37,076 bases of DNA from Thiohalomonadaceae bacterium (lineage in GTDB: Bacteria; Pseudomonadota; Gammaproteobacteria; Thiohalomonadales; Thiohalomonadaceae), in assembly GCA_041555695.1 (NCBI GenBank), contig JBFFJV010000001.1, positions 1 to 37,076 on the forward strand, written 5' to 3'. How positions within the stretch are numbered: the stretch's first letter is position 1; each line of letters begins with the position of its first letter. Below, one piece after another: positions 1 through 17,487 of this stretch. The notes under the pieces are model-generated. The model did not search any database and was not told where the DNA came from. It saw only the letters and a list, made by a program, of their open reading frames with translations. Made by a program: the position numbers and the translations under genes.

Positions 1-1326
1 AGTAACGATGAAATCGGTCACATGTCCGGTGCGCTGAACAACATGCTTAAGGTAATCCACGGCGCGTTCGACGTTGTAAGCCAGGCGGCGCTCGCTGTAG
101 ATAGCAGTGCGAACGATGTGGCCGGACGCGCTTCTGCCAACCGTTCTCGTGCGCAGCAGCAGCAACAACGTGCGCAGGAGGCATCACAGGTAATCGGTGA
201 AATGGGTGCGACGGCCGGTAAGGTTCGGAACGCTACCGCAGCCCAGCAGGAGGCGGCTGTGGCATCGCAGGGACGAGTTGCTGAGCTGCTGCAGAAAATG
301 CAGCAGGTAGCCTCTACCGCCATGTCTTCCGATGCTGAGGTACAACAGACTCTTGAGCGCGTAGGCGAGATGGGTGAAACCGGTGCCAAGGTTGTGGCCA
401 GTGCGCAGACGCAGGAGCAGATGGTAGAGCGTGTTACCAAGTCTATCGAAGAGATGGTTAACTCGGTGGGTGAGATGCAGAACGCGGTAAACCAGGCCTC
501 TGAATATGGTCGCTCATCACTGGAAGCTGCCGAGGAGGGTGCCCGTTCGGTATCCGCAACGGTAGACGGTATGCGCTCCATCTCCGAGTCATCCGAGCAG
601 ATTTCTGAAATCATCGATGTAATCACCGAGATTGCCGAGCAAACCAACCTCCTTGCCCTTAACGCGGCGGTAGAGGCGGCCCGTGCCGGTGCGCACGGTA
701 AGGGTTTCGCGGTGGTTGCGGACGAGGTAGGTAAACTGGCGCAACGTTCATCCGAGGCGGCAAAAGAGATCACACAGTTGATCAAGGATTCAAGCTCCGG
801 CGTAGCCGAGGGTGTGCGACTTTCTGACATGTCACAACAGGCACTGCAGAAGATTGACGAAGGTGGTCGCGTAAACATGCAGGCCATCGAGGGTATCGCC
901 AAATCAGCGCAGAGTCTGAACGATGCCACCGGCCAGGTTCAGAACCTGATTGAGGAACTCAACGTACTGGCCCGTGAAATCGGGGGTATGGCGGGTGAGC
1001 AGGGTACACGTCGTGCTGCGGCACAGCGTGCGCTTGACATGGTGGTAGATTACTCCAAGTCGATCACCAATCTGGTTGCCGAGGCCAACGACAGCGTTCG
1101 GGAGATTAACAGCCAGATGGAAGGGGTTGTGGAACGCTCCAATGAGATGAACAAGATGACCGCTGAGCAGGCAAAACGTTCGCAGATGGTATCGTCCATC
1201 TCTGCTGAAACAGCCGAGGCTGCAGAGCAGACCGTGGAAGGTGCCGGTGTGGTGGTAACTGTAACCGGTGACTTGCAGAAGCAGTCGCAGAGCCTTACTG
1301 AACAGGTACAGCAGTTCAAGATCTAA
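1..1326 (+). CDS. Methyl-accepting chemotaxis protein, C-terminal part (5' end outside the window)
   Basis: Frame 1 is open from nt 1 ([15 protein letters not shown] looks like the end of a HAMP helix) to TAA at 1324-1326. It carries the invariant MCP hairpin-tip motif [38 protein letters not shown], flanked by long Ala/Gln/Glu-rich coiled-coil arms. Confidence 0.95.
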
Positions 1327-1418
1327 ACGGATTGCCAGGGTGCCATGTGGCCTGAGAATGACAGGCCCATGGTTTGGCAGATGTTTGCAGACTGTACCGA
1401 TATTCAGGGGATAGTGTT

Positions 1419-1961
1419 ATGGCGGAAAGAGTAGGATTTGACAAGATAGAAGAGGATGAAGATGAGGGCATGCTACAGCTTGTCGGCTTTGATATTGCCG
1501 ATGAGCAGTTTGGTGTCGATATCCTCATGGTGCAGGAGATCATCCGTTCGGCAAAGGTCACCTCAGTGCCCAACTCGCCGGAGTTTGTTGAGGGGGTGAT
1601 TAATTTGCGCGGTAATATCATTCCGGTGGTCGATCTGCGCAAACGTCTTTACCTCTACAATGAGGCATCAGAGCAGAAGCGTTCGTGGGTACTCATCCTT
1701 AATATCGGTGAGCGTGTTGTTGGCTTTATCGTCGATCAGGTTACGCACGTTATCAAAGTATCGGAAGATAGTGTGCAGCCACCACCGGAGATCGTGATCT
1801 CCGGCCTGGAGAGCCAGTACATTCAGGGTGTATGCGAGTTGGGTAACAGCCTGCTGGTGATCCTCAACTTCTCGCGTGTACTGTTTAGTGATGAGTACAA
1901 CATGTTGCAGGACCTTGAGAGCGAAGAGATCGTGCTTGATGAGGAGATGATGGTCGATTAA
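1419..1961 (+). CDS. cheW: CheW coupling protein
   Basis: CheW-domain sequence (LVGFDIADEQFGVDILMVQEIIR...VINLRGNIIPVVDLRKRL...GFIVDQV). I prefer the ATG at 1419, preceded by GGGGA, over the TTG at 1374 given in the ORF track. The C-terminal tail is acidic. Confidence 0.9.
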   Translation: MAERVGFDKIEEDEDEGMLQLVGFDIADEQFGVDILMVQEIIRSAKVTSVPNSPEFVEGVINLRGNIIPVVDLRKRLYLYNEASEQKRSWVLILNIGERVVGFIVDQVTHVIKVSEDSVQPPPEIVISGLESQYIQGVCELGNSLLVILNFSRVLFSDEYNMLQDLESEEIVLDEEMMVD

Positions 1962-1985
1962 CTCACCATCGGAGTGGATAGTGTA

Positions 1986-2333
1986 ATGGGTAAAAATGTT
2001 CTGATAGTCGAAGACTCTGCGATGATGCGAAAGATCATCACCAAGGAGTTGGTCAATGCCGGCCACACCATTATTGGTGAGGCCAGTGACGGTGCGGAAG
2101 CGGTACAGATGTACCAGAGTCTTAGACCTGAAATCGTCACCATGGACATTACGATGCGTGGCATGGACGGTTTTACTGCTGCCCAGGAGATCCTCGCCAT
2201 TGATCCGGATGCGAAGATCCTTATCCTCTCCAACCTCAATGAAGATAAGTACCGGGACAAGGCTGAAAAGCTGGGTGTCATTGGTCTGGTAAATAAGCAT
2301 AAATCGAGTGAGATTCTTGATCTCATCGGTTGA
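1986..2333 (+). CDS. cheY: Single-domain CheY-like response regulator
   Basis: Receiver-domain hallmarks: VLIVEDS, phospho-acceptor context IVTMDITMRGMDG, and a conserved Lys in LVNKH. The ATG at 1986 has GGAG upstream. The alternative start is GTG at 1974. Confidence 0.9.
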   Translation: MGKNVLIVEDSAMMRKIITKELVNAGHTIIGEASDGAEAVQMYQSLRPEIVTMDITMRGMDGFTAAQEILAIDPDAKILILSNLNEDKYRDKAEKLGVIGLVNKHKSSEILDLIG

Positions 2334-2425
2334 AAGTTCTCGTCCTGGCACTTCGTGCCTCAGCGCGCTGAGTGGCGTTCTGGGAGCCGTGGGCAATGGA
2401 ACCATTGAGCATATAGGGAATGGTT

Positions 2426-5400
2426 ATGAGTAATATCGATTTGTCACTTCTTCCCGATTTCATCGTGGAGGCGGAGGAGCATCTCGAAGAGATGGAGGCG
2501 CTGCTGCTAAGACTGGTGCAGCAACCCGATGATCTGGAAGTGCTTAACGATATCTTTCGTCCGATCCACACCATAAAAGGTGGCGCGCAATATATCGGTC
2601 TGGAAAAGATCTCTCAACTATCACATCGTCTTGAGGACTTGCTGGATCTGTTGCGAGAAGGCTCCATGGTCTCCAACAGTGAGATTGTGGAAACCCTGAT
2701 AACTGCTGCCGACAGAATCAAACTACTGGTCAGTGAGCTGGAAGCACACCAGAGTGAAGATTCTGATGTCGATGAACTGGTTTCCAGTCTTACCTACTGG
2801 ATTGATGGTGACAGTGCCAGCCCTGAGGTCGCGGTTTCTACTGAGGACTCCCGCGGCAGTGAGATGGTAGAGCAGAGCATTGCTTCACCCTATGCGGCAG
2901 AAGAAGACAAGGAACTCTATGCCATCTTCGAGGCGCATTTGCAGGAACAGTTTGGTGAGCTTTCGGTACTGCTAAATCAGCTGGCATCAGGCGGTGATGT
3001 CACAGCACTGTTGCAACAGTCACTCAACGTGCTGGAGCAGATGCGCTCCTCAGCAAACTATATGGATTACGTTGATTTGGTGCAGCGCTACCAAATCTGG
3101 AAGAGTGACCTGGAAGCCGCCTTGCATCGTAGCAACAATGGCGAGCAGCTACAGCTTGAGTCGCTGTCACGCAATATGCGGGAACTGACAGAGCTGTTTC
3201 CCATTCTTCAATCAGTAGAAGTTCCGCTCTCTAGCGGCTTGGCTGAGGCTGCCCCTGCTGCTGATGAGCAGGTGGATATAACTGATGCGGTTGCGCGTGC
3301 CTTCGCCGAGGCATCAGCGGGTGCTACAGAGGCTGATAACCCATCTAATGATGAGGCTGCAGGCAATATTGATCTTTCCCTGCTTCCCGATTTTATTGTC
3401 GAGACAGAAGAGCACCTTGATGAGATGGAGGCTCTGCTGCTGAAGTTGATGCTGCAGCCTGATGACCGCGATGTGTTAAATGACATCTTTCGTCCCATCC
3501 ACTCCATTAAGGGGAGTGCGCAGTACATCGGTTTAACCAAAATATCACGCCTTAGTCATGTGCTTGAGGACCTGCTCGACCTGCTACGCCAGGGTGATCT
3601 CGAGTCAAACTTTACTATCGTCGAAACATTGATTGCGGCACGTGATCGTATTTTGCGTATTAACGATGAGTTAAAACAGCACCAGCAGGAAGATTCAGAT
3701 GTTGCTGATCTGATCGAGGCACTGAACCGGCTGCTGCCGGCATCGACACCCGTGGCAGAAGATGCTGCTTCTTCTTCCGTAACGGCCGGGGCCCCAGCCA
3801 TCTCCTCCATTGAGTCGTCTAGTTCCGCCGTCGTCTCACCTTATCAGGAGGAGGATGATAAGGAGCTATTTGAAATCTTCCTGGGGCATTTGCAAGAGCA
3901 GTATGATGAGCTGGTCATACTGCTGCAGGATATTGCGGGTGGCGCTGACAAGGTGGCGGCGTTGACGGGTTGTTCGGAGGTGGTCGCTAAGATGTCCTCC
4001 TCGGCCAACTACATGGATTATGTCGATCTGGTGCAGCGCTACAAGATTTGGCAAAACGAGATCACCAAGGCACAAGATGATCTGCTGGCCGGGACTGAAA
4101 CCTCGATCGCCTTTATGCAGCATAATCTGGATGAACTGGCTGCACTGTTTCCGCAATTACGCTCGGCGGATGCCGCGGTCATCGGTAGCACAGAGTCCAG
4201 CATTAAAGTGGTCGTGAATGAGCCTGTGGTCGGTGGTCTGGAAGATACCCTGGCTAAGAAGGCCTCTGCTGAGCGCACCGCCGCGGCACAGAGTGCCTCT
4301 TCTGCCTTCGATGCGCAGCTATTTAATAGCCTGGCTGGTGCCCTTGACCGCTCTATGCCTCAGGCATCCAGTGATGAGTATGAAACGCTCAATCAGATCT
4401 TTGATGAGTTGGTATCGGGTGAGCCAGAGCAAAAAGCTGAATCTGTTGCAGCACCAGCGAAACCGCTGGCAAGGGCGAAGCCTGCTGCGACGGCTGAAGC
4501 ACAGAAGAAATCTGCAGAGAGCAAGATTAAGAAAAGCGTCCGTGTGGATGCTGAGAAAATCGACACCCTGATGAATCAGGTGGGTGAGCTGGTGGTCGAC
4601 CGTTCCTACTTCTTCCAGCTGATGTCAGAAATGCGCAATCTGCAGCGCCACCTCAAGGATACCCTGGGGCTGGAGCAGAAAGAGGTGAAGATGCTGCGCA
4701 CCTTTACCTATCGTCTCGGTGAGGCAATCGCCTCGTTAGGCCGCACCTCCAATGACCTGCAGGAAGGTGTGATGAAGATGCGCATGCTGCCCATCTCTCA
4801 GATCTTCAATCGTTACCCAAGACTGGTACATGACCTCACGCGTAACAGCGAGAAGAAGGTTAACCTGGTGGTCAAGGGTGAGGATACTGAACTGGATCGC
4901 ATGATTGTTGAAGAGCTGTCTGATCCGCTGATCCACATTATTCGCAACTCTGTTGATCATGGACTGGAAGTCGAGTCTGAACGGCGGGAGAAGGGCAAAA
5001 ATGATGAAGGAACCCTGGTGCTCGAAGCGTACCAGGAGAGTAACCACATTGTTATCGAAGTCACCGACGACGGTAAGGGTATCGACCCGAATAAGGTTCG
5101 CCAAAAGGCAATCGAGAAAGGTCTCTACAGTGCCGAAGAGCTGGATCGCTTTACCAGTGATGAGTTGATAGCGTTGATCATGACCGCCGGCTTCTCGACC
5201 GCGGACAAGATCACGGGTACCTCCGGGCGAGGTGTCGGTATGGATGTGGTGAAGAAGAACATCGAGAAGCTTAACGGCACACTGGAGATTGATTCCAGAG
5301 TGGGTGTCGGGACGCAAATGCGCCTGAAGATTCCGCTGACCCTTGCCATTATCCACGCGCTGATGGTTCGTGTGAGTGATGATCTCTTTACCATTCCGCT

Positions 5401-5854
5401 GGCTAATGTTGACGAGACGGTACGTATTTTCAAGGATGAGACCTTTACCGTTGAGGGCGTCGAGGTGATTCATCTACGTGGTGAGACATTGCCGATATTC
5501 CGCCTATCTACCCTGTTTGGGGCGACGGGTGTCCAGGAGGGGGAAAAGTCCTTCGTCGTGATCGTGAGTGTTGGCGGACAACGTACCGGTTTTGTCGTTG
5601 ATGAGCTGTTGGGTCAGGAAGAGGTGGTCATCAAGCCGCTGGCAGATTATGTGCAGGACAAGAGCGGGTTCTCTGGCGCCACCATCATCGGTGATGGGCG
5701 TATTTCACTCATCCTCGATGCCTATGAGATGGTGCGTATGACCGCTAACAAACAGGCGAAAAGGCAGAAGCAGCAAGCGGATATGCTCAAGTCGAAGATT
5801 CGAAGAAAGGGCATGCCATCCCGCACTGCGGTTGTTGAAGGTGCTGCCGAGTAG
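2426..5854 (+). CDS. cheA: CheA histidine kinase with two Hpt (P1) domains
   Basis: There are two Hpt H-boxes (FRPIHTIKGGAQYIG and FRPIHSIKGSAQYIG). After an Ala/Ser/Pro linker come a dimerisation region, an HATPase_c domain (HIIRNSVDHG, DDGKGID, GRGVGMDVV) and a C-terminal CheW-like P5 domain (GFVVDELLGQEEVVIKPL). The ATG at 2426 is better spaced from AGGGA than the ATG at 2420. Confidence 0.93.
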   Translation: MSNIDLSLLPDFIVEAEEHLEEMEALLLRLVQQPDDLEVLNDIFRPIHTIKGGAQYIGLEKISQLSHRLEDLLDLLREGSMVSNSEIVETLITAADRIKLLVSELEAHQSEDSDVDELVSSLTYWIDGDSASPEVAVSTEDSRGSEMVEQSIASPYAAEEDKELYAIFEAHLQEQFGELSVLLNQLASGGDVTALLQQSLNVLEQMRSSANYMDYVDLVQRYQIWKSDLEAALHRSNNGEQLQLESLSRNMRELTELFPILQSVEVPLSSGLAEAAPAADEQVDITDAVARAFAEASAGATEADNPSNDEAAGNIDLSLLPDFIVETEEHLDEMEALLLKLMLQPDDRDVLNDIFRPIHSIKGSAQYIGLTKISRLSHVLEDLLDLLRQGDLESNFTIVETLIAARDRILRINDELKQHQQEDSDVADLIEALNRLLPASTPVAEDAASSSVTAGAPAISSIESSSSAVVSPYQEEDDKELFEIFLGHLQEQYDELVILLQDIAGGADKVAALTGCSEVVAKMSSSANYMDYVDLVQRYKIWQNEITKAQDDLLAGTETSIAFMQHNLDELAALFPQLRSADAAVIGSTESSIKVVVNEPVVGGLEDTLAKKASAERTAAAQSASSAFDAQLFNSLAGALDRSMPQASSDEYETLNQIFDELVSGEPEQKAESVAAPAKPLARAKPAATAEAQKKSAESKIKKSVRVDAEKIDTLMNQVGELVVDRSYFFQLMSEMRNLQRHLKDTLGLEQKEVKMLRTFTYRLGEAIASLGRTSNDLQEGVMKMRMLPISQIFNRYPRLVHDLTRNSEKKVNLVVKGEDTELDRMIVEELSDPLIHIIRNSVDHGLEVESERREKGKNDEGTLVLEAYQESNHIVIEVTDDGKGIDPNKVRQKAIEKGLYSAEELDRFTSDELIALIMTAGFSTADKITGTSGRGVGMDVVKKNIEKLNGTLEIDSRVGVGTQMRLKIPLTLAIIHALMVRVSDDLFTIPLANVDETVRIFKDETFTVEGVEVIHLRGETLPIFRLSTLFGATGVQEGEKSFVVIVSVGGQRTGFVVDELLGQEEVVIKPLADYVQDKSGFSGATIIGDGRISLILDAYEMVRMTANKQAKRQKQQADMLKSKIRRKGMPSRTAVVEGAAE
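2432..4170 (+). repeat. In-frame tandem duplication inside cheA (two modules of about 0.8-0.93 kb, offset exactly 933 nt = 311 codons)
   Basis: NIDLSLLPDFIVE(A/T)EEHL starts at 2432 and again at 3365. Similarity continues through the Hpt domains, the SPY..E(E/D)DKEL(Y/F).IF helices, the SSANYMDYVDLVQRY(Q/K)IW block and the ...LFP.L(Q/R)S ends near 3215 and 4170. Confidence 0.9.
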
Positions 5855-5894
5855 GACGTGGCATTTCTGTGCTCAAATACAAAGCTTCGTAAAT

Positions 5895-6956
5895 ATGGCT
5901 AATAAAATAAAAGTACTCATTGTTGATGACGCCTCCTTCATGGTGAAGGCGTTACGCGACATTCTGGATTCTGATCACGATATCGAGGTGGTGGGAAGCG
6001 CGCGCAATGGGAAAGATGCAGTCGAGAAGATTAAGAAGCTGCGTCCGGATGTTATTACCCTTGATGTCGATATGCCGGTGATGGATGGTATTCAGGCCAT
6101 TCGTCACATCATGATTGAGTGTCCGGTTCCTATCGTTATGTTGAGCTCACTGTTTGCCCATGGTGATATCACCTTTGAGGCATTGCGTCTTGGCGTAGTC
6201 GATTTTTTGCCCAAACCATCAGGGGCTATTTCAACAGATATCCATACCCAGCGTGCCGAGCTGGTTGAACGCGTCAAGCTTGCGGCATCAATTAAGCTGC
6301 ACAATGTGCAACGGGTGAAGCTTAATAAAGTTGATGCCCGCGAAGATATTACCAGTCGCTACCAGTATCAGTCGCTTGATTATCTGATGGCGATAGGAAC
6401 CACTCTGGGTGGACCCGGTTCAATTATTCGCCTGCTCTCATCGTTACCGCAAGATGTGCCTGCAGCGATAGTGGCAACCCAGGATATTGAACCGAAGATC
6501 CTTCCCGAATTTGTTAATGAGTTCGACCAGTATTCACCGTGGAAGATTGAGGTTGGAACTCGGTCAACGATATTACAGCAGGGTGTTTGTTATGTCTGTT
6601 CTACCCGGGTACCGATGAAGATCGGTATCAATGAGCAGAATGAGTCGATTCTGTTGCCCTGTGAGTCAGATGAGTCACCACTGAATGCGCTGTTTTCCTC
6701 TGCGGCGGAGGTATTTGAAAACCATACGGTGGGTGTGATCATGACAGGGCATGGTGATGATGGTAAAGAAGGGTTTGCGACAATTCAGAAGCATGGTGGT
6801 TTGACCCTTGCTCAGGAAACCCAAACCTGTGTCTATCCAAACCTGACACAGTGTGCCATAGAAAGCGGGGTGGTGGATAAGATTGTCTCCATCACAGAAC
6901 TGTCCTCGCAATTGGTCGACGCGGTGATGCAGTCCGAGGGAACTGGCATGGCATAA
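5895..6956 (+). CDS. cheB: CheB-like response regulator with a divergent (probably triad-less) methylesterase domain
   Basis: The N-terminal receiver is intact (KVLIVDDASFM, ITLDVDMPVMDG, FLPKP). The C-terminal domain aligns with CheB_methylest (LMAIGTTLGGPGS, GVIMTGHGDDG), but positions that are Ser and His in E. coli CheB read Thr and Asp. I chose the ATG at 5895; the TTG at 5832 in the ORF track overlaps cheA. Confidence 0.85.
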   Translation: MANKIKVLIVDDASFMVKALRDILDSDHDIEVVGSARNGKDAVEKIKKLRPDVITLDVDMPVMDGIQAIRHIMIECPVPIVMLSSLFAHGDITFEALRLGVVDFLPKPSGAISTDIHTQRAELVERVKLAASIKLHNVQRVKLNKVDAREDITSRYQYQSLDYLMAIGTTLGGPGSIIRLLSSLPQDVPAAIVATQDIEPKILPEFVNEFDQYSPWKIEVGTRSTILQQGVCYVCSTRVPMKIGINEQNESILLPCESDESPLNALFSSAAEVFENHTVGVIMTGHGDDGKEGFATIQKHGGLTLAQETQTCVYPNLTQCAIESGVVDKIVSITELSSQLVDAVMQSEGTGMA

Positions 6957-6988
6957 GTGTGCCATCATAGAACAACATAGGTATTTTA

Positions 6989-7939
6989 ATGATTATCTCA
7001 TGCCCCAAGTGCGGGACGAAATATAACGTCGACAAAGAGCGCTTCAACAAGCCGAATCCAAAGGTTCGTTGTGTGAAGTGTAAGAGTGTTTTTGTTGTAC
7101 GTATTGTGAAGAAGAGTTCCGATTCGGCAGCCACTAATACGCCGGTAGTGGCTGCACCACGCAAGTCATTCGTGGATACCAGTCCCTGTGTCACGGTGAC
7201 GGTATGCAATCAGAAGGGTGGGGTGTCGAAGACGAGCACCTGTCTGAATCTTGGGGTATCTCTTGCCGCACAGGGAAAAAAGGTGTTGCTGGTCGACTTT
7301 GATGTGCAGGCTAATCTCACCAGCCTGTTGCACCACCATGGGGCCAGGTCCTTCTTCGATGTGATGGGGAGTAGTGAGGCGAAGATTGAGGACTATATTC
7401 TCAGTACCGACTATGGCGTATCGTTGTTGCCCTCAAACAGCAAGATGGCCCTGCTGGCAAAGAAACATATGCAGCAGGGGGATTTTGAATACCTGCTGGC
7501 AGAAAAGTTGATTGCGATTAAGCCGGAATTTGATTTTATTATTATCGATACCCCTCCCTCTGGTGACTTCTTTACCCTGAACTCACTGCTGGCCTCCGAT
7601 TTGGCGATCATTCCTACTCAATGCGAATACCTTTCGCTCAACGGTGTTGAGCATATTGTGCGCATGATTTCGGTGATCAATGATAAGCGCGGCCATGGGC
7701 TGAAGTACAAAGTGCTGGTGGCTATGTACAATAAGGAGATAACGGCGGCCAACGTGATCCTCGATAAGCTTAAGTCAAAATATACGGATAATTTACTCAG
7801 CACCACCATTACGATGGATGGGGCGGTACAGGAGTCACACATTACCCAGAAGCCTCTCTACCACTACAACAAACAGAGTAATGCGTCACAGGAATATGTA
7901 GCGCTGGCGAACGAATTGCTGGGGCTGAGTATTAAGTAA
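6989..7939 (+). CDS. MJ0042-type zinc-ribbon fused to a ParA/MinD-family ATPase
   Basis: The N-terminus MIISCPKCGTKYNVDKERFNKPNPKVRCVKCKSVF has a CxxC...CxxC pattern typical of the MJ0042 finger family. After a linker come a deviant Walker A (NQKGGVSKTS), Walker A' (LLVDFDVQANLT) and Walker B (FIIIDTPPS). It sits directly after cheB. Confidence 0.85.
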   Translation: MIISCPKCGTKYNVDKERFNKPNPKVRCVKCKSVFVVRIVKKSSDSAATNTPVVAAPRKSFVDTSPCVTVTVCNQKGGVSKTSTCLNLGVSLAAQGKKVLLVDFDVQANLTSLLHHHGARSFFDVMGSSEAKIEDYILSTDYGVSLLPSNSKMALLAKKHMQQGDFEYLLAEKLIAIKPEFDFIIIDTPPSGDFFTLNSLLASDLAIIPTQCEYLSLNGVEHIVRMISVINDKRGHGLKYKVLVAMYNKEITAANVILDKLKSKYTDNLLSTTITMDGAVQESHITQKPLYHYNKQSNASQEYVALANELLGLSIK

Positions 7940-7942
7940 TAT

Positions 7943-8710
7943 ATGAAGCATCTACTTACGAGATATTCTTATCCGCTGATCTCTTTTTCAGTGGTGCTTA
8001 CCCTGTGGGAGGTTGCCTCCAGGCTCAGTGGTTGGAGTGCGCAGGTGTTTCCTGGTCCGCTGATGGTGGCTGAAGGGGGGATTGAGCTACTGCTGAATGG
8101 CAAGTTACTGCGCGACTCTGTGGCTAGTCTGTTTCGTGTCACGATTGGTTTTGACCTGGCGGTTTTGATTGGGATTCCTCTGGGAATTGTCCTGGGCCGC
8201 ATGAGCCGGCTGAGCAAATTCGTCAATCCGCTGATTCAGTTCTTACGCCCGATTTCTCCGCTGGCCTGGATCCCGCTGGCAATGCTGTGGTTTGGTATCG
8301 GGGAGAAACCGGCGATATTTCTGATCTTCCTCTCCTGCTTTTTCCCGCTGGTGACATCGACAGTGATCGCTGTCTACTCGATAAAACCCATCTACTTTCA
8401 AGTGGCGTCTAACTTCGGTTTCTCCCGTCGTGAGGTATTGTTCAAGGTGATCTTCCCGGCCATTCTGCCTGAAGTCATTACCGCGCTTCGTATGACTATC
8501 GGGATCGCATGGCTGGTGGTGGTGGCAGCCGAGATGATTGCTGTGCAGTCCGGGCTGGGTTATTTGATCCTCGATTCACGAAATGCACTGCGTATGGACT
8601 ATGTGATGGTGGGCATGATTACCATTGGTATTATCGGCATTATGCTCGACTACCTGATGCGTCGCCTGTCTGAGATTCAAGAGGTTAAATGGCGCACTCT
8701 GGCGTCATAG
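7943..8710 (+). CDS. ABC transporter permease, NitT/TauT (nitrate/sulfonate/taurine) family
   Basis: The protein is 255 aa and multi-pass hydrophobic, with a BPD_transp_1-like EAA region (...AAEMIAVQSGLGYLI). It starts 3 nt after the ParA-like stop codon. Confidence 0.85.
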   Translation: MKHLLTRYSYPLISFSVVLTLWEVASRLSGWSAQVFPGPLMVAEGGIELLLNGKLLRDSVASLFRVTIGFDLAVLIGIPLGIVLGRMSRLSKFVNPLIQFLRPISPLAWIPLAMLWFGIGEKPAIFLIFLSCFFPLVTSTVIAVYSIKPIYFQVASNFGFSRREVLFKVIFPAILPEVITALRMTIGIAWLVVVAAEMIAVQSGLGYLILDSRNALRMDYVMVGMITIGIIGIMLDYLMRRLSEIQEVKWRTLAS

Positions 8711-8725
8711 GGACAGGTTTCGGTA

Positions 8726-9520
8726 ATGAGTAAAATTAAAATTCAAAACCTGTGCAAGCATTATATTGACCGTCGAACGCAGATGCGTAGTGACACGGAT
8801 ACCGCTGGTAAAGGCAAGTGCAGTAACGTTCTGGATAATATCGATCTGGAGATTGAAGAGGGAGAGATGGTCTGCATTCTGGGGCCTTCAGGTGCCGGCA
8901 AGTCGACATTGCTACGCATTGTTGCCGGTCACGATCAGGGAAGCTCAGGTCAGATTTTGATTAATGGTGCTGAGATTAACGGGCCCAGTCAGGATAATAT
9001 TTTTGTTTATCAGCAGAACGGCCTGCTGCCCTGGTATTCGGTGTGGGAGAATGTTGAGCTTGGTCTACGGCATATTGATGATGATGATGAGAGGAACAAC
9101 CGCATCCATGAATATATCGATATTGTGGAATTAACGGGCTTTGAGTACCACTATCCGCATCAGCTCTCCGGTGGTATGCAGCGTCGTGCCGAGCTGGCCC
9201 GTGCGCTTGCAGTCAACCCGGACATTCTTTTTATGGATGAACCCTTCACCGGACTCGATTACCTGACTCACCTCAAGATTCGCGAAGAGGTGATTAATAT
9301 GCACCCGTACTATCAGAAAACCACCTTGATGGTGACCCACTTTATTGATGACGCGCTGATTATGGCCGACCGTATCGTGGTGTTGGGGGAGCGACCTGCC
9401 AAGGTGATGATGGTGGAGAAACTCGATTATGCCCGGCCGCGCAATATTGAAAGAGAACCGGGCCTGCGGGAGTTACGTGACAAGATCTTCCTGATGCTGG
9501 GGGTCAGCTATGTTGCGTAA
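8726..9520 (+). CDS. ABC transporter ATP-binding protein
   Basis: Motifs present: Walker A GPSGAGKST, Q-loop YQQNGLLPW, signature LSGGMQRR, Walker B ILFMDEPFTGLD and H-loop MVTH. Confidence 0.92.
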   Translation: MSKIKIQNLCKHYIDRRTQMRSDTDTAGKGKCSNVLDNIDLEIEEGEMVCILGPSGAGKSTLLRIVAGHDQGSSGQILINGAEINGPSQDNIFVYQQNGLLPWYSVWENVELGLRHIDDDDERNNRIHEYIDIVELTGFEYHYPHQLSGGMQRRAELARALAVNPDILFMDEPFTGLDYLTHLKIREEVINMHPYYQKTTLMVTHFIDDALIMADRIVVLGERPAKVMMVEKLDYARPRNIEREPGLRELRDKIFLMLGVSYVA

Positions 9521-10553
9521 CAAATTCTGGTCACTAGCCTCTGCTAGTCTCTCCTCCAAGCTTTTTGTCATCCCAGTATTCTGGTTGATTGGCATCAGTG
9601 TTGCCCACTATTACCTGAACTTTGAGAGTAGTGATCGCCGGGTTTTTCGCATGGGTTATATGCCGGTGATCACCAATATGGCGGCGCCGCTTCTTGATTA
9701 CGTCTCAGAGGGTGAGGACGGTGTGCGATACAAGGCAATTAAGTACTCATCCTTTGCCGAGATGGCCGAATCGATACGCAACAACCATATCGATGCGGCC
9801 TTCATGATTGCACCACTCTCCATTGTGCTGCGCCAGCAGGGGACCGATATTAAGCTGGTTTATATCGGTAACCGTCACGAGAGCACGCTGGTGACGCGCA
9901 AGGACCTTAACATTACCGAGTTTCCGCAGCTGGCAGGTAAGACTGTTGCGGTGCCGATGCGTTTCTCCGGCCACAACCTGAGTGTGCTGCAGCTGGTGAA
10001 GAAGTATCAGCTGCAGGGTGATATCAATATTGTGGAGATGAATCCACCGGATATGGCCTCGGCCCTGGCTTCGGGCGAGCTGGATGCCTACTATGTGGGC
10101 GAACCCTTTGCCGCGAAGACCCTTAAGTCCGGTCATGCTTCACTGCTATCCTATGCAGAGGATGTATGGCCCAATTTCATCTGTAATCTGGTGATTGTGA
10201 ATAACTCCCTGATTGAATCTGATCCTGAGTTGATTCAGCAGTTCGTCAGTGCTGCAGCCCGCTCCGGACAATGGGCACAGAAGAACCCTGATGAAGCGGC
10301 AGAAATTGCCTCCTCCTACTGGAATCAGGATGTTGAACTGGTGAAATACGCTCTCAATACCCCGAAAAATCGTATCGTTTATGATCAGTTCGTACCACAG
10401 GCAGCTGAGATGCAGCAGATCGCAGACATGATGGTGGAGAATGCACTCATTGCTGATCACAGCATTGAGGGCCTGATTGATGACCGATTTGCCAGGAAGG
10501 CTGATCTTACCAGGATAGAAGGGCTGGGAAGTGTGCTGCAGAGCGGCTACTAG
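9510..10553 (+). CDS. ABC substrate-binding protein (NMT1/SsuA/NrtA-like) with an N-terminal membrane anchor
   Basis: The start overlaps the ATPase stop by 11 nt. The N-terminus is hydrophobic (KLFVIPVFWLIGISVAHYY) with no obvious lipobox. The body resembles NitT/TauT binding proteins (MGYMPVI..., AAFMIAPLSIV, YVGEPFAA). Confidence 0.75.
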   Translation: MLRNKFWSLASASLSSKLFVIPVFWLIGISVAHYYLNFESSDRRVFRMGYMPVITNMAAPLLDYVSEGEDGVRYKAIKYSSFAEMAESIRNNHIDAAFMIAPLSIVLRQQGTDIKLVYIGNRHESTLVTRKDLNITEFPQLAGKTVAVPMRFSGHNLSVLQLVKKYQLQGDINIVEMNPPDMASALASGELDAYYVGEPFAAKTLKSGHASLLSYAEDVWPNFICNLVIVNNSLIESDPELIQQFVSAAARSGQWAQKNPDEAAEIASSYWNQDVELVKYALNTPKNRIVYDQFVPQAAEMQQIADMMVENALIADHSIEGLIDDRFARKADLTRIEGLGSVLQSGY

Positions 10554-10858: not shown

Positions 10859-12157
10859 ATGCAGGTTTCAGTTGAGACAACCAACGGTCTTGAGCGTCGT
10901 ATGACCGTAGAGCTCCCCGTCGAGCGTATTGATGACGAGGTGCAGAACCGCCTCAAGCAGATGAGCCGTAGCGCCAAGGTGAAGGGCTTTCGCCCCGGTA
11001 AGGTGCCGCATAAGGTGCTGGCTCAGCAGTATGGAGCGCAGATCCGTGATGAGGTGGTTGGCGAGTTGATCCAGTCCAGTTATTTTGAAGCAGTAAGCAA
11101 GGAGAGCCTGCAGCCGGCGGGTATGCCGAGTATCGAGCCTAAGATAAACGAGGCCGGTAAAAACCTGGAATACACCGCTACCTTTGAGGTGATGCCTGAG
11201 GTGACTCTGGCCGATGTATCCGGTGCCAAGCTGGAGAAGCGTGTTGCCGAGGTGAGTGACGCAGACCTCGAAAAGATGATGGAAACCCTGCTCAAGCAGC
11301 GTGCGACCTGGGAAGCCGTCGATCGTGCCGCAGCCGAGGGCGACCGCTTGAATATCGACTTCAAGGGCACCATTGATGGAGAAGAGTTCTCCGGAAACTC
11401 TGGCGAGAATGTCCCGGTTACCATCGGTGCCAAGCGCATGATTGAGGGCTTCGAAGAGGGAATGGTTGGCGCCAAGGCAGGTGATGAGCTCACCCTGGAC
11501 CTCAGCTTCCCCGAGGAGTACCCCCACAAGGAGGTTGCTGGCAAGCCGGTACAGTTCGCGGTTAAGGTGAACAGCGTGGAAGAGTCCAAGCTGCCTGTGC
11601 TGGACGAAGAGTTTGCCAAGAGCTTTGGGATTGGAGATGGCAGTCTTGAGTCCCTGCATCAGGAGGTGCGCCAGAATATGGAGCGCGAAATGAAGCAGGC
11701 TCTGACCGAGGGCAATAAGCAGGCGGTGATGGATAAGCTGGTTGAGCTTAATCCAATCGAGGTGCCCCAGGCTCTGGTAGAGAGTGAAGCCGAGAACCTC
11801 AAACAGCAGATGCAGCAGCAGATGCACATACCGGATGGCAAGTCTGGGGTCGAGCTCGATAACGGGATGTTCCGTGAGCAGGCGCAGCGCCGTGTCTCTC
11901 TGGGCCTGATTCTCTCTGAGCTGATTAAGAGCAAAGGGCTGAAGGCAGATGAAGATAAGGTTCGTGCCAAGGTCGATGAGCTGGCAGCTACCTACGAGGA
12001 GCCTCAGCAGGTGATCGACTGGTACTACGGCGATAAGAGCCGCCTGTCTCAGGTGGAGAGCCTGGTACTGGAAGATGCCGTGGTTGACTGGGTATTCGAA
12101 CAGGCAGATGTGACGGAGAAAAGTGGCAGTTTCGACGAAGTAATGGGTCGAGGCTAA
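10859..12157 (+). CDS. tig: Trigger factor
   Basis: [20 protein letters not shown]...GFRPGKVP is the canonical trigger-factor N-terminus. There is an internal FKBP-type PPIase segment. GAGGTG lies upstream of the start, and the gene sits in the tig-clpP-clpX-lon synteny. Confidence 0.97.
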
Positions 12158-12186
12158 CTCAGACCAAGTTAAAGGAAACTGATGCA

Positions 12187-12828
12187 ATGATCGACAACAG
12201 CAATATGAACGGTGCACTGGATACGAAAAATCTGGGTTTGATCCCCATGGTGGTCGAGCAGACCTCCCGTGGTGAGCGCTCCTACGACATCTACTCCCGA
12301 CTGCTCAAGGAGCGGGTAATCTTTGCCGTCGGGCCGGTAGAAGACCACATGGCCAATTTGATCGTGGCGCAGCTGTTGTTCCTGGAGTCGGAAAATCCGG
12401 ATAAGGACATTCACCTCTACATCAACTCTCCAGGTGGCTCGGTTAGCGCGGGCCTGGCGATTTACGACACCATGCAGTTCATCAAGCCGAAGGTCAACAC
12501 CATGTGCATCGGCATGGCGGCGAGCATGGGGGCCGTGTTGCTGGCCGGTGGAGCAGAGGGCAAGCGTTTTGCTCTACCGCACAGCCGGGTGATGATTCAC
12601 CAGCCGCTGGGTGGTTATCAGGGCCAGGCAACGGATATTGAAATTCATGCCCGTGAGATTCTGAAGATTCGCGAACAGCTCAACGGTATTCTCGCCAGCC
12701 ACAGCGGTCAGCCGATCGAGCGTATCCAGCAGGATACCGAGCGTGACAACTTCATGAGCGGTAGCGAGGCGGTGGAATATGGCCTTATAGATCAAGTGCT
12801 TGGTAACCGTGCGGGTGAGGGGGAGTAG
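12187..12828 (+). CDS. clpP: ATP-dependent Clp protease proteolytic subunit
   Basis: [35 protein letters not shown] (catalytic Ser context) and MIHQPLGG (His context). AAGGAA lies 9 nt upstream. Confidence 0.97.
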
Positions 12829-12943
12829 TTCCTTCTCGCTCATCAGTCTGGTGGCTGATTCAATCCATAAAGAACAGGGGGTTGAAATATGACGCCAGAC
12901 TATGCATGTTTGACATATATCGATAGTAATACAGGAATAGGCG

Positions 12944-14224
12944 ATGCCTGAAAATACGACTGGCAAAGGTGATGACAACGGCAAACTGCTCTACTGCTCC
13001 TTCTGTGGTAAGAGCCAGCATGAGGTGCGTAAGCTGATCGCCGGGCCTTCTGTCTTTATCTGCGATGAGTGTGTCGAGCTGTGTAACGACATTATTCGTG
13101 AAGAGATTCAGGAGGAGTCGAGTGGTAGTGTCGGTAGTCAGCTGCCCACGCCTCATGAGATTAACGAAAGTCTTGATGAATACGTGATTGGCCAGAAACG
13201 TGCCAAGAAGGTGCTGTCGGTGGCGGTTTACAACCACTACAAGCGCCTTAATGCCGGGAAGAACAAGGACGAGGTAGAGCTGGCCAAGAGTAATATCCTG
13301 CTGATAGGTCCTACCGGTTCGGGTAAGACCTTGCTGGCCGAGACTTTGGCGCGCCTGCTAAATGTGCCCTTCACTATTGCTGATGCCACCACCCTTACTG
13401 AGGCGGGTTACGTTGGTGAAGATGTGGAGAACATCATCCAGAAGTTGTTGCAGAAGTGCGATTACGACGTGGAGAAGGCGCAGACAGGTATTGTCTATAT
13501 TGACGAAATCGACAAAATCTCGCGCAAGTCTGACAACCCTTCGATTACCCGTGATGTATCGGGTGAGGGTGTACAGCAGGCACTGCTCAAGCTGATCGAG
13601 GGCACTGTTGCCTCGGTACCGCCGCAGGGTGGTCGCAAGCACCCGCAGCAGGAGTTTTTGCAGGTCGATACCTCGAATATCCTCTTTATCTGTGGTGGTG
13701 CCTTCGCCGGACTGGATCGGGTGATTCGGAATCGTTCTGAGAAGGGTGGTATTGGCTTCTCCGCTGAGGTGAAGAGCAAGGATGAGAAGAAGAGCTACAC
13801 TGAAATGCTACTCAGCGTCGAGCCGGAGGATTTGGTGCAGTATGGCCTGATCCCTGAGTTCGTGGGACGTCTGCCGGTACACGCGACGCTGGAAGAGCTG
13901 GATGAGGATGCTCTCGTCTCAATACTTACCGAGCCGAAGAACGCGCTGATTAAACAGTATGGCAGACTCTTCGATATGGAGGATGTGGAGCTGGAGTTCC
14001 GCGAGGATGCGCTGCTTTCCATTGCCACCAGGGCGATGGAGCGCAAGACCGGTGCCCGTGGCCTGCGCTCTATCCTGGAGACAACCCTGCTCGATACGAT
14101 GTATGATTTACCCTCTATGGAAGGAGTGAGTAAGGTGGTGATCGATGCAGGTGTCATTGAAGGCGAGTCTGAGCCGCTGCTGATATACAAAAGCGCCGAG
14201 CAGAGCGTCGCTGCAGCTGACTAA
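12944..14224 (+). CDS. clpX: ATP-dependent Clp protease ATP-binding subunit ClpX
   Basis: N-terminal zinc-binding CSFCGK...CDECV, Walker A GPTGSGKT, Walker [10 protein letters not shown] and the pore-loop GYVGED. Confidence 0.98.
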
Positions 14225-14232
14225 CCCCTGTC

Positions 14233-14270
14233 GGGTGCGGTTATCGACACCGCACCCGCAACTATTTTTC
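14233..14270 (+). terminator. Hairpin plus T-tract downstream of clpX (possible partial terminator)
   Basis: A perfect 9-bp stem, GGGTGCGGT (14233-14241) pairing with ACCGCACCC (14249-14257), has a 7-nt loop. The T-run (TATTTTT) follows only after a 6-nt spacer, so this is not a textbook intrinsic terminator. Confidence 0.4.
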
Positions 14271-14303
14271 CCCTTGATTCCCGCGCGAATAGTCCGCATA
14301 ATT
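14268..14303 (+). promoter_or_regulatory. Putative sigma-32 heat-shock promoter for lon
   Basis: TTCCCCTTGATT - 14 nt - CCGCATAAT resembles the sigma-32 consensus (CCCTTGAA - 13-15 nt - CCCCATNT). It lies about 80 nt upstream of the lon ATG, where E. coli lon has its sigma-32 promoter. Confidence 0.45.
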
Positions 14304-14382
14304 AATAGCATAGTAAATAGCTTGGTTATTCTGTGCGTGCGGTATTCCGCCCGGCTAGAATGGCCCAAAGAGGTGCAATCCG

Positions 14383-16806
14383 ATGGATGCTAAGGACAAG
14401 ATTTCTGAAGTAAGCGAACAACTGCGGACGATTCCGGTGCTGCCGTTGCGTGATGTGGTGGTCTATCCACACATGGTTATCCCACTGTTCGTCGGTCGTG
14501 ATAAATCAATTAATGCACTGGAAGCTGCGATGGAAGAGGACAAGGAGATCCTGCTGGTGGCACAAAGAAGTGCCTCAGAAGATGATCCTGGTGAAGAAGA
14601 TATATACCGTATTGGTACCCTCTCGACTATCTTGCAGCTACTGAAACTTCCCGACGGTACCGTAAAAGTACTGGTGGAGGGGGGACAGCGCGCCAAGATA
14701 GTCAACTTTATCGAACAGGAAGAGTTCTTCTCGGCGCAAATATCGGTGCTGGAGGCCGAGCCCATTGAGGAGCGTGAGGCCGAGGTACTATCGCGTTCAG
14801 TGCTCAATCAGTTTGATCAGTACGTCAAGCTGAATAAGAAAGTGCCGCCTGAGGTTTTGACCTCGCTCTCCGGTATTGAAGATGCGAATCGCTTACTCGA
14901 TACCATTGCCGCGCATATGGCGCTGAAGATCGATGAGAAGCAGGAGATTCTGGCAATTACCGATCTGCGGGAGCGCTTTGAGCACCTGCTGGCGATGATG
15001 GAGTCGGAGCTGGATCTATTGCAGGTGGAGAAGCGCATCCGTGGTCGCGTTAAAAAGCAGATGGAGAAGAGCCAGCGCGAGTACTACCTCAATGAGCAGA
15101 TGAAGGCGATCCAGAAGGAGCTGGGTGACCTTGACGAGGCTCCTAATGAAATGGAGGAGCTGGAGCAGAAGATCGAAAAGGCCGGCATGTCCAAAGAGGC
15201 GAAGGACAAGGCCACTGCAGAGCTGAACAAGTTAAAGATGATGTCACCCATGTCCGCTGAAGCGACTGTGGTGCGCAATTATATCGACTGGATTGTGCAG
15301 GTGCCGTGGAAGAAGAAATCCAAGGTGAGACACGATCTGGCCTTAGCTGAAAAGGTGCTGGAAGAGGACCACTACGGTCTGGAGAAGGTGAAGGAACGGA
15401 TCCTCGAATACCTCGCAGTACAGAAGCGGGTGAAAAAACTGAAGGGCCCGATCCTCTGCCTGGTCGGACCGCCCGGTGTTGGTAAGACCTCGCTGGGTAA
15501 GTCGATTGCGCGGGCAACCAATCGCAAGTTTGTGCGTATGGCCCTGGGTGGAGTACGTGACGAGGCGGAGATCCGTGGTCACCGTCGTACCTACATCGGT
15601 TCAATGCCAGGCAAGATCGTGCAGAATCTTGCCAAGGTTGAGACCCGTAATCCACTGTTCCTGCTTGATGAGATCGACAAAATGGCTTCCGACTTCCGTG
15701 GCGATCCCGCCTCGGCGATGCTGGAGGTACTTGACCCGGAGCAGAATCACACCTTTAACGATCACTACCTGGAGGTCGATTATGACCTTTCCGATGTGAT
15801 GTTCATCGCCACCTCTAATTCAATGAACATCCCCGGCCCGCTGCTGGACCGGATGGAGGTGATCCGCATTGCCGGCTATACCGAGGATGAAAAGCTCAAC
15901 ATCGCACGCCGCTACCTGGTCTCCAAGGAGATGAAGGCTAACGGCCTGAAAGACGATGAGATCGTTATCAACGATGAGGCTCTGCTCGATATTGTGCGCT
16001 ACTACACCCGTGAGGCGGGGGTGCGTGGCCTGCAGCGCGAGGTGGCCAAGATCTGCCGCAAGGTGGTGAAGGAGCTGGTATCCGATGAGTCGCGCAAGCA
16101 GATTAGCGTCGGCAGTGATAATCTTGATGAATTCCTGGGTGTGCGTCGTTTCCGTTTCGGACTGGCCGAGGAGTCGGATCAGGTCGGTCAGGTAACGGGC
16201 CTGGCCTGGACCGAAGTGGGCGGCGAACTACTGAGTATCGAAACGGTGGTAGTGCCGGGTAAAGGTAAGCACACCGTTACCGGACAGCTGGGTGATGTGA
16301 TGAAGGAGTCGATCCAGGCTGCGATGAGTGTGGTGCGTAGCCGCGCCGCTGGCCTGGGAATTCGTCCTGATTTCTACGAGAACCAGGATATCCATGTGCA
16401 TGTGCCTGAAGGGGCAATCCCCAAAGACGGCCCCAGTGCCGGTATCGGTATGTGTACAGCGCTGGTTTCAGTGCTAACCGGTATTCCGGTGCGTGCTGAT
16501 GTGGCGATGACCGGAGAGATTACCCTGCGCGGTGAGGTGCTGCCCATTGGTGGTCTGAAGGAGAAACTGCTGGCGGCCTCTCGTGGTGGCATCAAGACGG
16601 TAATCATTCCTGAAGAGAATCGTCGTAATCTTGAGGACGTGCCAGATAACATAACAGATAATCTGGATATTCATCCTGTAAAGTGGATCGACGAGGTGAT
16701 CGACCTCGCCCTGGTGAGCAAACCCGAGCCTCTTTCTGAAGAAGAGGTAATGGAAATTGTCAAGGCGAAAAAGGAAAAGAAACCGAATAACCTGCAAACC
16801 CATTAG
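14383..16806 (+). CDS. lon: Lon protease
   Basis: LON N-domain ([23 protein letters not shown]), AAA+ Walker [10 protein letters not shown], Walker [10 protein letters not shown] and the proteolytic Ser context PKDGPSAGI. Confidence 0.98.
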
Positions 16807-16812
16807 GGTGAT

Positions 16813-16857
16813 AAAGGCGATAGATGGCGCTATAGTTTTTCCCACTGTCGCCTTTTT
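16813..16857 (+). terminator. Probable intrinsic terminator after lon
   Basis: AAAGGCGA (16813-16820) pairs with TCGCCTTT (16848-16855) and the inner stem extends imperfectly. The 3' arm runs into TTTTT. The loop is large, hence the moderate confidence. Confidence 0.45.
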
Positions 16858-16943
16858 ACATGAATAAACTAAGCTAAGTTGTTAATAGCTCGATAAGTAT
16901 CGCTTAAAGCCGCATAAAACCGCGATTTTAAGCAGTACACTGC

Positions 16944-16973
16944 TTGACAGTAGTAAGAGCCAGTTGGTATAAA
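16944..16973 (+). promoter_or_regulatory. Putative sigma-70 promoter for hupB
   Basis: A perfect -35 TTGACA (16944-16949), an 18-nt spacer, then TATAAA (16968-16973), about 130 nt upstream of hupB. Confidence 0.5.
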
Positions 16974-17102
16974 TTCGCGAAGATTTTTATTGCCGTTCAA
17001 CATAAATTAAATGGCGGCGTTTTTTGTAAGTGTTATACGTCTTATCTAAATAACTAGAGCAAGACCCAATAATCCTACCAAACGGAACGAGGGGAGAAAC
17101 CT

Positions 17103-17375
17103 GTGAACAAATCTGAAATGATTGATGCAATTGCTGAAGGTGCTGATATTTCTAAAGCTGCTGCTGGTCGTGCACTGGATGCGATGGTTGAAGCTGTAAC
17201 TGAGACTCTGAAAAAGGGTGAAACCGTAAACCTGATCGGTTTTGGTACCTTCGAAGTACGTGATCGCAAGGCTCGTACCGGCCGTAACCCGCAGACTGGT
17301 GCCACCATTCAGATCGCTGCTGCTAAATCTCCTGCCTTCAAGGCTGGTAAAGCGCTTAAGGATGCAGTAAACTAG
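17103..17375 (+). CDS. hupB: DNA-binding protein HU-beta
   Basis: [27 protein letters not shown]...[21 protein letters not shown]...[12 protein letters not shown] is a 90-aa HU-family protein. It has a GTG start with GAGGGGAG upstream and the conserved position after lon. Confidence 0.96.
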
Positions 17376-17392
17376 CGCGCCTTTGAGACATC

Positions 17393-17468
17393 GGGTGCTT
17401 AGCTCAGCTGGGAGAGCATCGCCCTTACAAGGCGAGGGTCGGGGGTTCGATCCCCTCAGCACCCACCA
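17393..17468 (+). tRNA. tRNA-Val (anticodon TAC)
   Basis: A 76-nt cloverleaf: acceptor GGGTGCT/AGCACCC, D-arm AGCTCAGCTGGGAGAGC, anticodon loop CTTACAA, T-arm GGGGGTTCGATCCCCT and an encoded CCA. Confidence 0.95.
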
Positions 17469-17487
17469 AACAAGAAAAGTAAAATTC

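Follow-up and report, generated by a model that had tools for sequence, protein, structure and literature searches.

The first 10,553 nucleotides (nt) of the window analysed here, a 37,076-nt stretch of a contig from a Thiohalomonadaceae bacterium (JBFFJV010000001.1), carry a block of chemosensory (che) genes that runs through a ParA-type ATPase gene into the genes of an ATP-binding cassette (ABC) importer. This block is probably one copy of a conserved, uncharacterised module which is inherited as a unit and which would build its own methylation-independent array, positioned by the ParA protein and coupled to the importer. The core of the module comprises (PatA-like regulator)-CheB-like 1-methyl-accepting chemotaxis protein (MCP)-CheW-CheY-CheA-CheB-like 2-zinc-ribbon ParA-permease-ATPase-putatively anchored binding protein. 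As the earlier note on this DNA had done, we infer the separate array, its placement by ParA and a role of the importer, rather than of flagella, as an input or output of the pathway.

Gene content and layout of the block

Homology to Pfam and NCBIfam families identifies nine closely packed genes on the forward strand at 1-10553, from the 3' part of the MCP gene through the ABC binding-protein gene:

1..1326, + strand: MCP, 3' part (441 codons); Pfam MCPsignal, E 8e-41
1419..1961, + strand: CheW, 180 aa from ATG (the open reading frame, ORF, opens with TTG at 1374); Pfam CheW, E 4e-37
1986..2333, + strand: CheY, single domain, 115 aa from ATG (ORF opens with GTG at 1974); Pfam Response_reg, E 1e-20
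2420..5854, + strand: CheA, 1144 aa; Pfam Hpt (twice), H-kinase_dim, HATPase_c and CheW
5895..6956, + strand: CheB-like 2, 353 aa; Pfam receiver (REC) and CheB_methylest, E 7e-36
6989..7939, + strand: zinc-ribbon ParA/Soj-type ATPase, 316 aa; Zn_ribbon_5, E 4e-11; AAA_31, E 3e-44
7943..8710, + strand: NitT/TauT-family ABC permease, 255 aa; Pfam BPD_transp_1
8726..9520, + strand: ABC ATPase, 264 aa; Pfam ABC_tran, E 1e-32
9510..10553, + strand: NMT1/SsuA-like binding protein, 347 aa; Pfam NMT1_2 and NMT1

The gaps between these genes are, in order, 92, 24, 86, 40, 32, 3, 15 and -11 nt, the last value reflecting an 11-nt overlap of the binding-protein gene with the ATPase gene. The tight same-strand packing described in the earlier note stands, and its count of seven components is to be replaced, since the window holds nine genes. 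The 3-nt gap between ParA and permease is exact, with the ParA stop at 7939 and the permease ATG at 7943. At this junction, where an internal promoter or terminator had been considered, a consensus scan detects no terminator-like or promoter-like site, and across the block such sites are fewer than in shuffled sequence. No intrinsic terminator was found 3' of the binding-protein gene, and the 3' boundary of the module therefore rests on comparative data. An Rfam scan of the window returns two tRNAs only, with no riboswitch or leader within the block.

Conservation of the module across genomes

The starting set for the comparison consisted of contigs encoding zinc-ribbon ParA homologues at 87%, 82%, 64% and about 50% identity, each of which keeps the order from CheB-like 1 to the binding protein. 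Further relatives were drawn from a scan of one genome per species, and the resulting taxonomic census is a lower bound. The order MCP-CheW-CheY-CheA-CheB-ParA-permease-ATPase-substrate-binding protein is found in at least 15 loci. Searches with the window proteins (tblastn) recover it complete in L006-L010, L012-L014, L016 and L017, and the loci listed with conserved order are L001, L003, L006/L085, L007, L008, L009, L010, L012, L013, L014, L016, L017, L086, L087, L088, L090 and L092. The lineages concerned include Gammaproteobacteria, Methylococcales, cable bacteria (Ca. Electrothrix), other Desulfobulbales and one Planctomycetota metagenome-assembled genome (MAG). Full-length relatives occur in gammaproteobacterial and Methylococcales MAGs, in Ca. 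Electrothrix marina and Electrothrix sp. YB6, in a Thermodesulfobacteriota MAG, and in Desulfobulbaceae and Desulfobacteraceae MAGs.

The flanks of these loci differ. The tig-clpPX-lon genes are adjacent only in the closest relatives, and an ANTAR regulator is found in L003, a hemerythrin in L085 and a PAS-GGDEF-EAL protein in L087. The order from MCP through ParA to the ABC genes, whose conservation the earlier note had proposed to check, is thus kept in distant lineages with different surroundings, and recurrence in at least 15 loci with unlike flanks rules out that the ABC genes are there by chance. Over 16 loci, ParA and permease are spaced by -14 to 135 nt, including 0-nt and overlapping cases. 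Furthermore, the distance matrices of all nine proteins correlate with each other (r 0.6-0.9, Mantel p <= 0.0005). Conservation is highest in the ABC proteins, with mean identities of 60-67% as opposed to 51-52% for CheA and ParA.

For the binding protein, 1432 relatives score E < 1e-10; identity is at least 57% in each of the best 120. A reciprocal test from the transporter side examined two binding-protein loci, L092 and L093. The first, a Planctomycetota MAG reached via its binding protein, encodes CheA, CheB-like, zinc-ribbon ParA and ABC genes. L092 also has a 230-aa protein lacking a Pfam match inserted between ParA and permease (7454-8146), a 372-aa unknown protein after the binding protein (11171-12289), and a 1341-aa protein combining CheW and LysM domains (15787-19812).

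A reduced variant of the module is present in Desulfobulbales/Desulfobacteraceae loci L011 (1530-10945), L015 and L018. It holds a divergent PATAN(DUF4388)-REC-CheB-like gene, a REC-PATAN (REC-DUF4388) gene, MCP, CheA and zinc-ribbon ParA, and is devoid of CheW, CheY, CheB-like 2 and the ABC genes. In an open-access literature search, with key subscription papers outside its reach, neither a zinc-ribbon ParA within a che cluster, nor CheB paralogues as pseudo-esterases, nor this Che-ABC linkage was found described.

Two CheB-like proteins and an altered adaptation branch

The altered adaptation branch suspected from the window is borne out by the wider comparison, which reveals two CheB-like proteins with replaced esterase residues and no CheR in cis in 26 loci. 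CheB-like 2 can be aligned with CheB structures from end to end. As the earlier note had observed, esterase residues are replaced, Thr-Asp-Asp standing in the place of the Ser164-His190-Asp286 triad (E. coli numbering: S164 to T, H190 to D, D286 kept), and its receiver residues D10, D11 and D56 are intact. Across the loci, position 164 is Thr (Ser in three and Asn in one), position 190 is always Asp or Glu, and position 286 is Asp. A second REC-CheB_methylest gene, CheB-like 1, lies upstream of the MCP gene in relatives, including the 99.2%-identical contig L088, and its triad positions are occupied by Ala (in the motif GAAEGG), by Tyr or His, and by Asp. The phospho-acceptor residues of the receiver are conserved in both proteins across the loci.

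The canonical S-H-D triad is present in 104 of the 150 best CheB-like matches from a set of 1.84 billion representatives. Those closest to CheB-like 2 (50%-identity representatives) share [T/S/G]-[E/D]-D, and a separate GAAEGG family with A-[Y/H]-D is recognisable. Judged by these residues, CheB-like 1 and CheB-like 2 are two stable lineages of predicted pseudo-esterases. Gene decay was considered and rejected, since every orthologue shows the same substitutions within a well-conserved protein. In fact, the shared substitutions together with identities of 53-89% over the full length indicate that the CheB-like proteins are under selection.

The cheR gene which the earlier note had thought might lie upstream of the MCP is ruled out as the first upstream gene, since this position is taken by the second degenerate CheB-like gene in L088. 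An exact-sequence look-up with the CheW of the window gave no match. With E. coli CheR as query, tblastn gives no match better than E 3 in the 26 loci; CheZ likewise has no tblastn match in these loci, and neither CheR nor CheD is represented by a Pfam domain in the nine annotated loci. The absence of CheR, CheZ and CheD noted for the window extends to about 10 kb around the module in every locus.

An ordinary operon for flagellar chemotaxis, belonging to a known class, with the ABC genes as chance neighbours and a decaying cheB, is a highly improbable reading of the block. The core Che domains are indeed all standard (MCP, CheW, CheA and CheY are all present by Pfam), and the tig-clpPX-lon housekeeping genes follow directly downstream, but such an operon would leave unexplained why the ABC adjacency recurs between unlike flanks, why the well-conserved CheB orthologues all bear the same substitutions, and why tblastn detects neither CheR nor CheZ. 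The recurrent order, the shared CheB substitutions and the Planctomycetota locus refute it for practical purposes.

A receptor of very long class and its signalling partners

The window edge cuts the MCP at about codon 622, and the remaining fragment consists of the end of the HAMP domain and a very long signalling domain. The full-length protein of 1062 aa was read from L088 (99.2% DNA identity over 11.6 kb). Besides the signalling domain, it contains two transmembrane (TM) segments, a periplasmic region of ~535 aa with a weak dCache_1 match, and a HAMP domain. The tip of the hairpin falls on residue 231 of the fragment. It is followed by 210 residues (30 heptads) up to the C-terminus, and in the full-length protein ~204 residues separate it from the end of HAMP. 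The signalling domain thus spans ~58-60 heptads, and each arm of the hairpin has ~29 heptads, as in the 58-heptad (58H) chemoreceptor class by arm length rather than by class hidden Markov model (HMM). By this measure, the unusually long receptor claimed earlier fits the rare 58H class (chemoreceptor heptad classes are listed in PMC6943060).

Aligned end to end with its orthologues, the fragment is 51-87% identical to them. The C-terminus carries no pentapeptide, and no site in the MCP matches the strict methylation-site consensus [ASTG][ASTG]xx[EQ][EQ]xx[ASTG][ASTG]; the N-arm contains two relaxed, QQ-containing matches. The sensor domain differs between loci, being dCache_1, PilJ (on the L003 receptor), 4HB_MCP_1, GAF plus dCache, or none.

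CheW orthologues are called at 172-181 aa and CheY orthologues at 115-119 aa. CheA is composed of two tandem units of ~270 aa and a linker, followed by dimerisation, ATPase and CheW-like domains, the last of which forms the C-terminus; Pfam detects neither a P2 domain nor a C-terminal receiver domain. Each unit consists of an Hpt domain and a second helical domain. The duplicated Hpt modules reported for CheA are real: identity between residues 5-267 and 316-584 is 54%, the histidine of FRPIH[TS]IKG is present in both, and Pfam assigns two Hpt domains, which match CheA P1 structures. Some orthologues have one Hpt unit only. The helical second halves of the units (~170-267 and ~480-584; window 2420-4200) share the conserved motif SSANYMDYVDLVQRY, and their matches to DUF6827 and FimL_C are faint or sub-threshold. 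The second helical domain may represent a degenerate Hpt-like domain, as known from ChpA and FimL. NCBIfam yields generic matches only, below the cut-offs, for both CheA and the CheB-like protein.

The zinc-ribbon ParA

The zinc-ribbon ParA/MinD-type ATPase noticed in the window is confirmed by its Zn_ribbon_5 and AAA_31 matches. It comprises an MJ0042-type CxxC...CxxC ribbon (residues 1-37), a variable linker and a core with the deviant Walker A motif KGGVSKT that is closest to Soj/ParA structures. The ribbon scores above the cut-offs for MJ0042-type families (PF13717, PF13719 and TIGR02098; Pfam and NCBIfam), and its four cysteines are, like the Walker motifs, invariant in 20 ParA homologues. 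The first 45 residues match PDB 2nb9 (E 4e-4), which is presumably Caulobacter ZitP, and 7zok (E 0.03), the ribbon of the Myxococcus "adventurous gliding motility protein X" (GltJ/AgmX). Ribbons of the MJ0042 family bind polarity factors, as in the pairs ZitP-PopZ and GltJ-MglA.

Recurring neighbours and a possible link to surface motility

A response regulator of ~240 aa is located upstream of CheB-like 1 in L003, L006, L017 and L087 and downstream in L086. Its N-terminus matches DUF4388/PATAN at E 0.004-0.006, below the Pfam cut-off, at the same position in two orthologues, and aligns with the DUF4388 domains of the Desulfobulbales loci with an hhalign probability of 75% (E 2.6e-5). A PATAN-like domain joined to a receiver would give this regulator the layout of PatA.

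Two further sets of genes recur beside or within the module. A trio encoding a PilZ protein, a membrane protein with HAMP as its only domain (~200-228 aa) and a TauE/SafE-family permease accompanies it in four loci, whose hosts are an Electrothrix, two gammaproteobacterial MAGs and the Planctomycetota MAG; the trio is absent from the window at 10.5-37 kb. An additional HAMP-only gene lies between CheY and CheA in Desulfobulbales and Planctomycetota versions, and is likewise absent from the window. Their positions are as follows:

L009 13630-15387: PilZ-HAMP-TauE trio
L085 15394-17182, - strand: PilZ-HAMP-TauE trio
L086 15761-17117, - strand: PilZ-HAMP-TauE trio
L092 13631-15728: PilZ-HAMP-TauE trio
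L009 4443-5072: extra HAMP-only gene
L008 4277-4906: extra HAMP-only gene
L092 321-1094: extra HAMP-only gene
L013 5006-5623: extra HAMP-only gene

L092 also encodes a Roadblock/LC7 (MglB-like) protein and a REC-HD protein. The weak PATAN, PilZ and MglB-like links, together with the fact that cable bacteria, which glide, carry the module, hint at surface motility as one output of the pathway.

The ABC importer

The importer has the components of the NitT/TauT family, namely a BPD_transp_1 permease, an ATPase with intact motifs and a binding protein of NMT1/SsuA fold. The permease is 63-88% identical to its orthologues, and its NCBIfam matches to SaoP, TauC and NrtB each fall under the respective cut-off. 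The same holds for the matches of the ATPase to SaoA, NrtC/D and TauB; its Walker A, signature, Walker B and H-loop motifs, read from the translation, are canonical. The AlphaFold2 model of the binding protein (mean predicted local distance difference test, pLDDT, 90.8) has an N-terminal helix at residues 14-37. Conservation of the anchor motif W-L-x-L-I-S-x-x-H across 16 loci suggests that this modelled helix may serve as an uncleaved membrane anchor.

The fold is nearest to 3un6, then to TauA/SsuA, and then to NrtA/CmpA and ThiY-type proteins, at 13-20% identity. As these structural neighbours bind different ligands, the assignment is limited to the family level and the substrate cannot be named; no equivalog-level match was obtained, NCBIfam equivalog scores being far below the cut-offs. 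Nitrate, at which the ANTAR regulator and PilJ sensor of L003 hinted, was dropped as a candidate substrate, as these features are not general.

The meaning of the importer linkage

Several points weigh against reading the block as an inherited, methylation-independent and importer-coupled module. A Thr or Ser nucleophile plus an acidic residue might retain some chemistry in the CheB-like proteins, and CheR could be encoded elsewhere in these genomes. The correlation of distance matrices is partly expected from shared species phylogeny. The Planctomycetota assignment depends on one MAG bin, the PATAN assignment is weak and sub-threshold, and a PatA-like gene is not visible for the window's lineage. 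Finally, the second locus of the reciprocal test, L093 (Desulfococcaceae HSG8), encodes a 62%-identical binding protein and the ABC ATPase without Che or ParA genes; the link between module and importer is therefore strong, not obligatory. The neighbours in L093 (4390-11023) are a dCache-SpoIIE phosphatase, an AAA_15/AAA_21 ATPase and a second NMT1-type binding protein.

It is conceivable, if rather unlikely, that the importer acts as a sensory input, with transport activity or the liganded binding protein being read by the pathway and the MCP sensor adding a second input. Chemotaxis linked to the phosphotransferase system (PTS) and binding-protein-dependent chemotaxis are precedents for such an arrangement. 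The conserved linkage and the tight ParA-permease coupling are in its favour, as are the conserved putative membrane anchor, which would hold the binding protein beside membrane partners, and the dCache-SpoIIE protein of L093, where the same type of ABC system adjoins another signalling protein. Conversely, the periplasmic domain of the MCP varies between loci (dCache, 4HB, PilJ or none), which makes it less likely that the binding protein contacts the receptor in a conserved manner, and no known adaptor from transport to CheA is present.

A mere co-inheritance or co-expression of the ABC genes with che-parA for a shared ecology, free of physical or regulatory coupling, appears improbable. The cell would, for example, move to a zone and take up a solute which is available there. 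Operon membership by itself explains both the gene order and the correlated divergence, and L093 demonstrates that the ABC system exists apart from Che genes. However, the order is kept over at least two or three phyla, the ParA-permease junction is very tight, and the ABC genes are lost jointly with CheB-like 2, CheW and CheY in the variant loci.

For the importer-coupled module, the balance leans towards the importer as a regulated target or co-localised partner rather than as a ligand-presenting co-receptor, because the transporter is the most conserved and the receptor sensor the most variable part, and because the variants without ABC genes all lack CheB-like 2 as well.

Comparison with known systems

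Chemosensory pathways are classified by their accessory proteins. As far as gene content allows, in a comparison for which the MiST class HMMs are still needed, the module resembles a che operon with a ParC/PpfA-type ATPase but appears to lack tested defining features of each known system. With the Vibrio ParC/ParP system (F6) it shares a ParA-family ATPase inside the che operon; ParC is the ParA-family ATPase of the F6 che cluster and is dedicated to the placement of the chemoreceptor array. In contrast to that system, the module has no ParP-type adaptor with a CheW domain, given that the one CheW of the window cluster is of ordinary length and is not joined by another CheW-domain gene. It also lacks CheZ, its context is not F6, its receptor is about 58H instead of 40H, and its ATPase bears an N-terminal zinc ribbon and is followed by the ABC importer. 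The ParA-like protein PpfA in a che operon of Rhodobacter sphaeroides segregates a second, separate, cytoplasmic array (TlpT). The module receptor, however, is transmembrane, with two TM segments and a large periplasmic domain, and no ParB-like N-terminal peptide was identified on it.

Several features recall the chemosensory systems of type IV pili (Pseudomonas Pil-Chp and cyanobacterial Pix/Tax/Hmp), namely a CheA with more than one Hpt-type unit and faint FimL_C/DUF6827 matches, the PilJ-type sensor in L003, the candidate PatA-like regulator upstream in relatives (sub-threshold PATAN) and the gliding cable-bacterium hosts. Unlike these systems, the module has a CheA with no C-terminal receiver, no CheR (PilK) and CheB-like proteins predicted to be non-catalytic, and the ParA and ABC genes belong to the module, not to the pilus systems. 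CheV and the Bacillus CheC/CheD proteins offer a proposed likeness in that feedback is provided by phospho-regulated or binding proteins instead of or beside methylation. The candidate feedback proteins of the module, though, are CheB homologues devoid of the catalytic triad, and CheV, CheC and CheD are not present.

The ribbon belongs to the same MJ0042-type family (PF13717/PF13719) as that of Myxococcus GltJ/AgmX (7zok), with a direct sequence match, but is there part of a protein of a membrane/motility complex, whereas in the module it is fused to a ParA ATPase. Similarly, the importer has the three-component architecture, the protein families and the class II binding-protein fold of the NitT/TauT importers TauABC, SsuABC, NrtABCD/CmpABCD and ThiXYZ. 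It differs from them in its order permease-ATPase-binding protein, its position inside a che operon, and a predicted membrane-anchored binding protein which is 13-20% identical to those of known ligand.

The remainder of the window

Downstream of the block, a housekeeping run at 10859-19551 comprises tig, clpP, clpX, lon, hupB (17103-17375), two tRNAs and ppiD. This arrangement from tig to ppiD is typical for Gammaproteobacteria, and its synteny extends to L001 and L090. It is followed at 19582-27199 by a sodium:dicarboxylate symporter, an Opp/Dpp-type ABC system (SBP_bac_5, two permeases and a fused double ATPase of 541 aa) and a thioredoxin-like protein. Further features are the following:

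17393-17468: tRNA-Val (Rfam)
17488-17564: tRNA-Asp (Rfam)
28883-29737: 284-aa ORF with no Pfam match
29520-30251: ORF with a Mut7-C RNase domain
36108-36884, - strand: TadE-like protein at the window end

The 284-aa ORF and the Mut7-C ORF overlap by about 215 nt, and the true start of the Mut7-C gene probably lies further downstream. The TadE-like protein suggests that a Tad/Flp pilus locus continues past the window end. Long antisense ORFs (303-449 aa) at 18-929, 10868-12217 and 17941-19059, all on the - strand and opposite MCP, tig and ppiD, are regarded not as genes but as shadow ORFs that arise from composition.

Proposed mechanism and significance

Given what is established about array architecture, a receptor of ~58 heptads should be unable to pack with receptors of the 36-44H classes. 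The long receptor would therefore form its own array with the CheW and CheA of the cluster, unable to mix with shorter receptors. By analogy with ParC and PpfA, the ParA ATPase would place this array, and its zinc ribbon may dock the array to a polarity or landmark protein. Phosphorylation by CheA would reach CheY, CheB-like 1, CheB-like 2 and, probably, the PatA-like regulator. Presumably no longer able to demethylate, the two CheB-like proteins could act as phosphorylation-dependent binders, in feedback on the receptor or on another target, or as phosphate sinks; adaptation is accordingly proposed to be methylation-independent. The importer, synthesised along with ParA, would be a partner of the pathway in function. 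The behavioural output would probably pass via CheY and the PatA-like regulator to surface motility, that is, to a type IV pilus or gliding.

The most far-reaching form of this proposal is speculative and rather doubtful as a whole. Here, phospho-regulated pseudo-CheB proteins would replace methylation, and the array would be built around the ABC importer and control or read it, with the zinc-ribbon ParA tying both to a landmark. If true, it would describe a transport-coupled, methylation-free "chemosensory transportosome" of gradient-dwelling sediment bacteria, including cable bacteria.

To our knowledge, adaptation through CheR/CheB methylation is treated as nearly universal. The module described here is widespread among cable bacteria and uncultured bacteria of sediments and vents. 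Should the coupling prove functional, it would provide a model for methylation-free array adaptation, for what ParA-type ATPases dock to, and for the integration of signalling with transport, and the module may guide the behaviour of cable bacteria in redox gradients.

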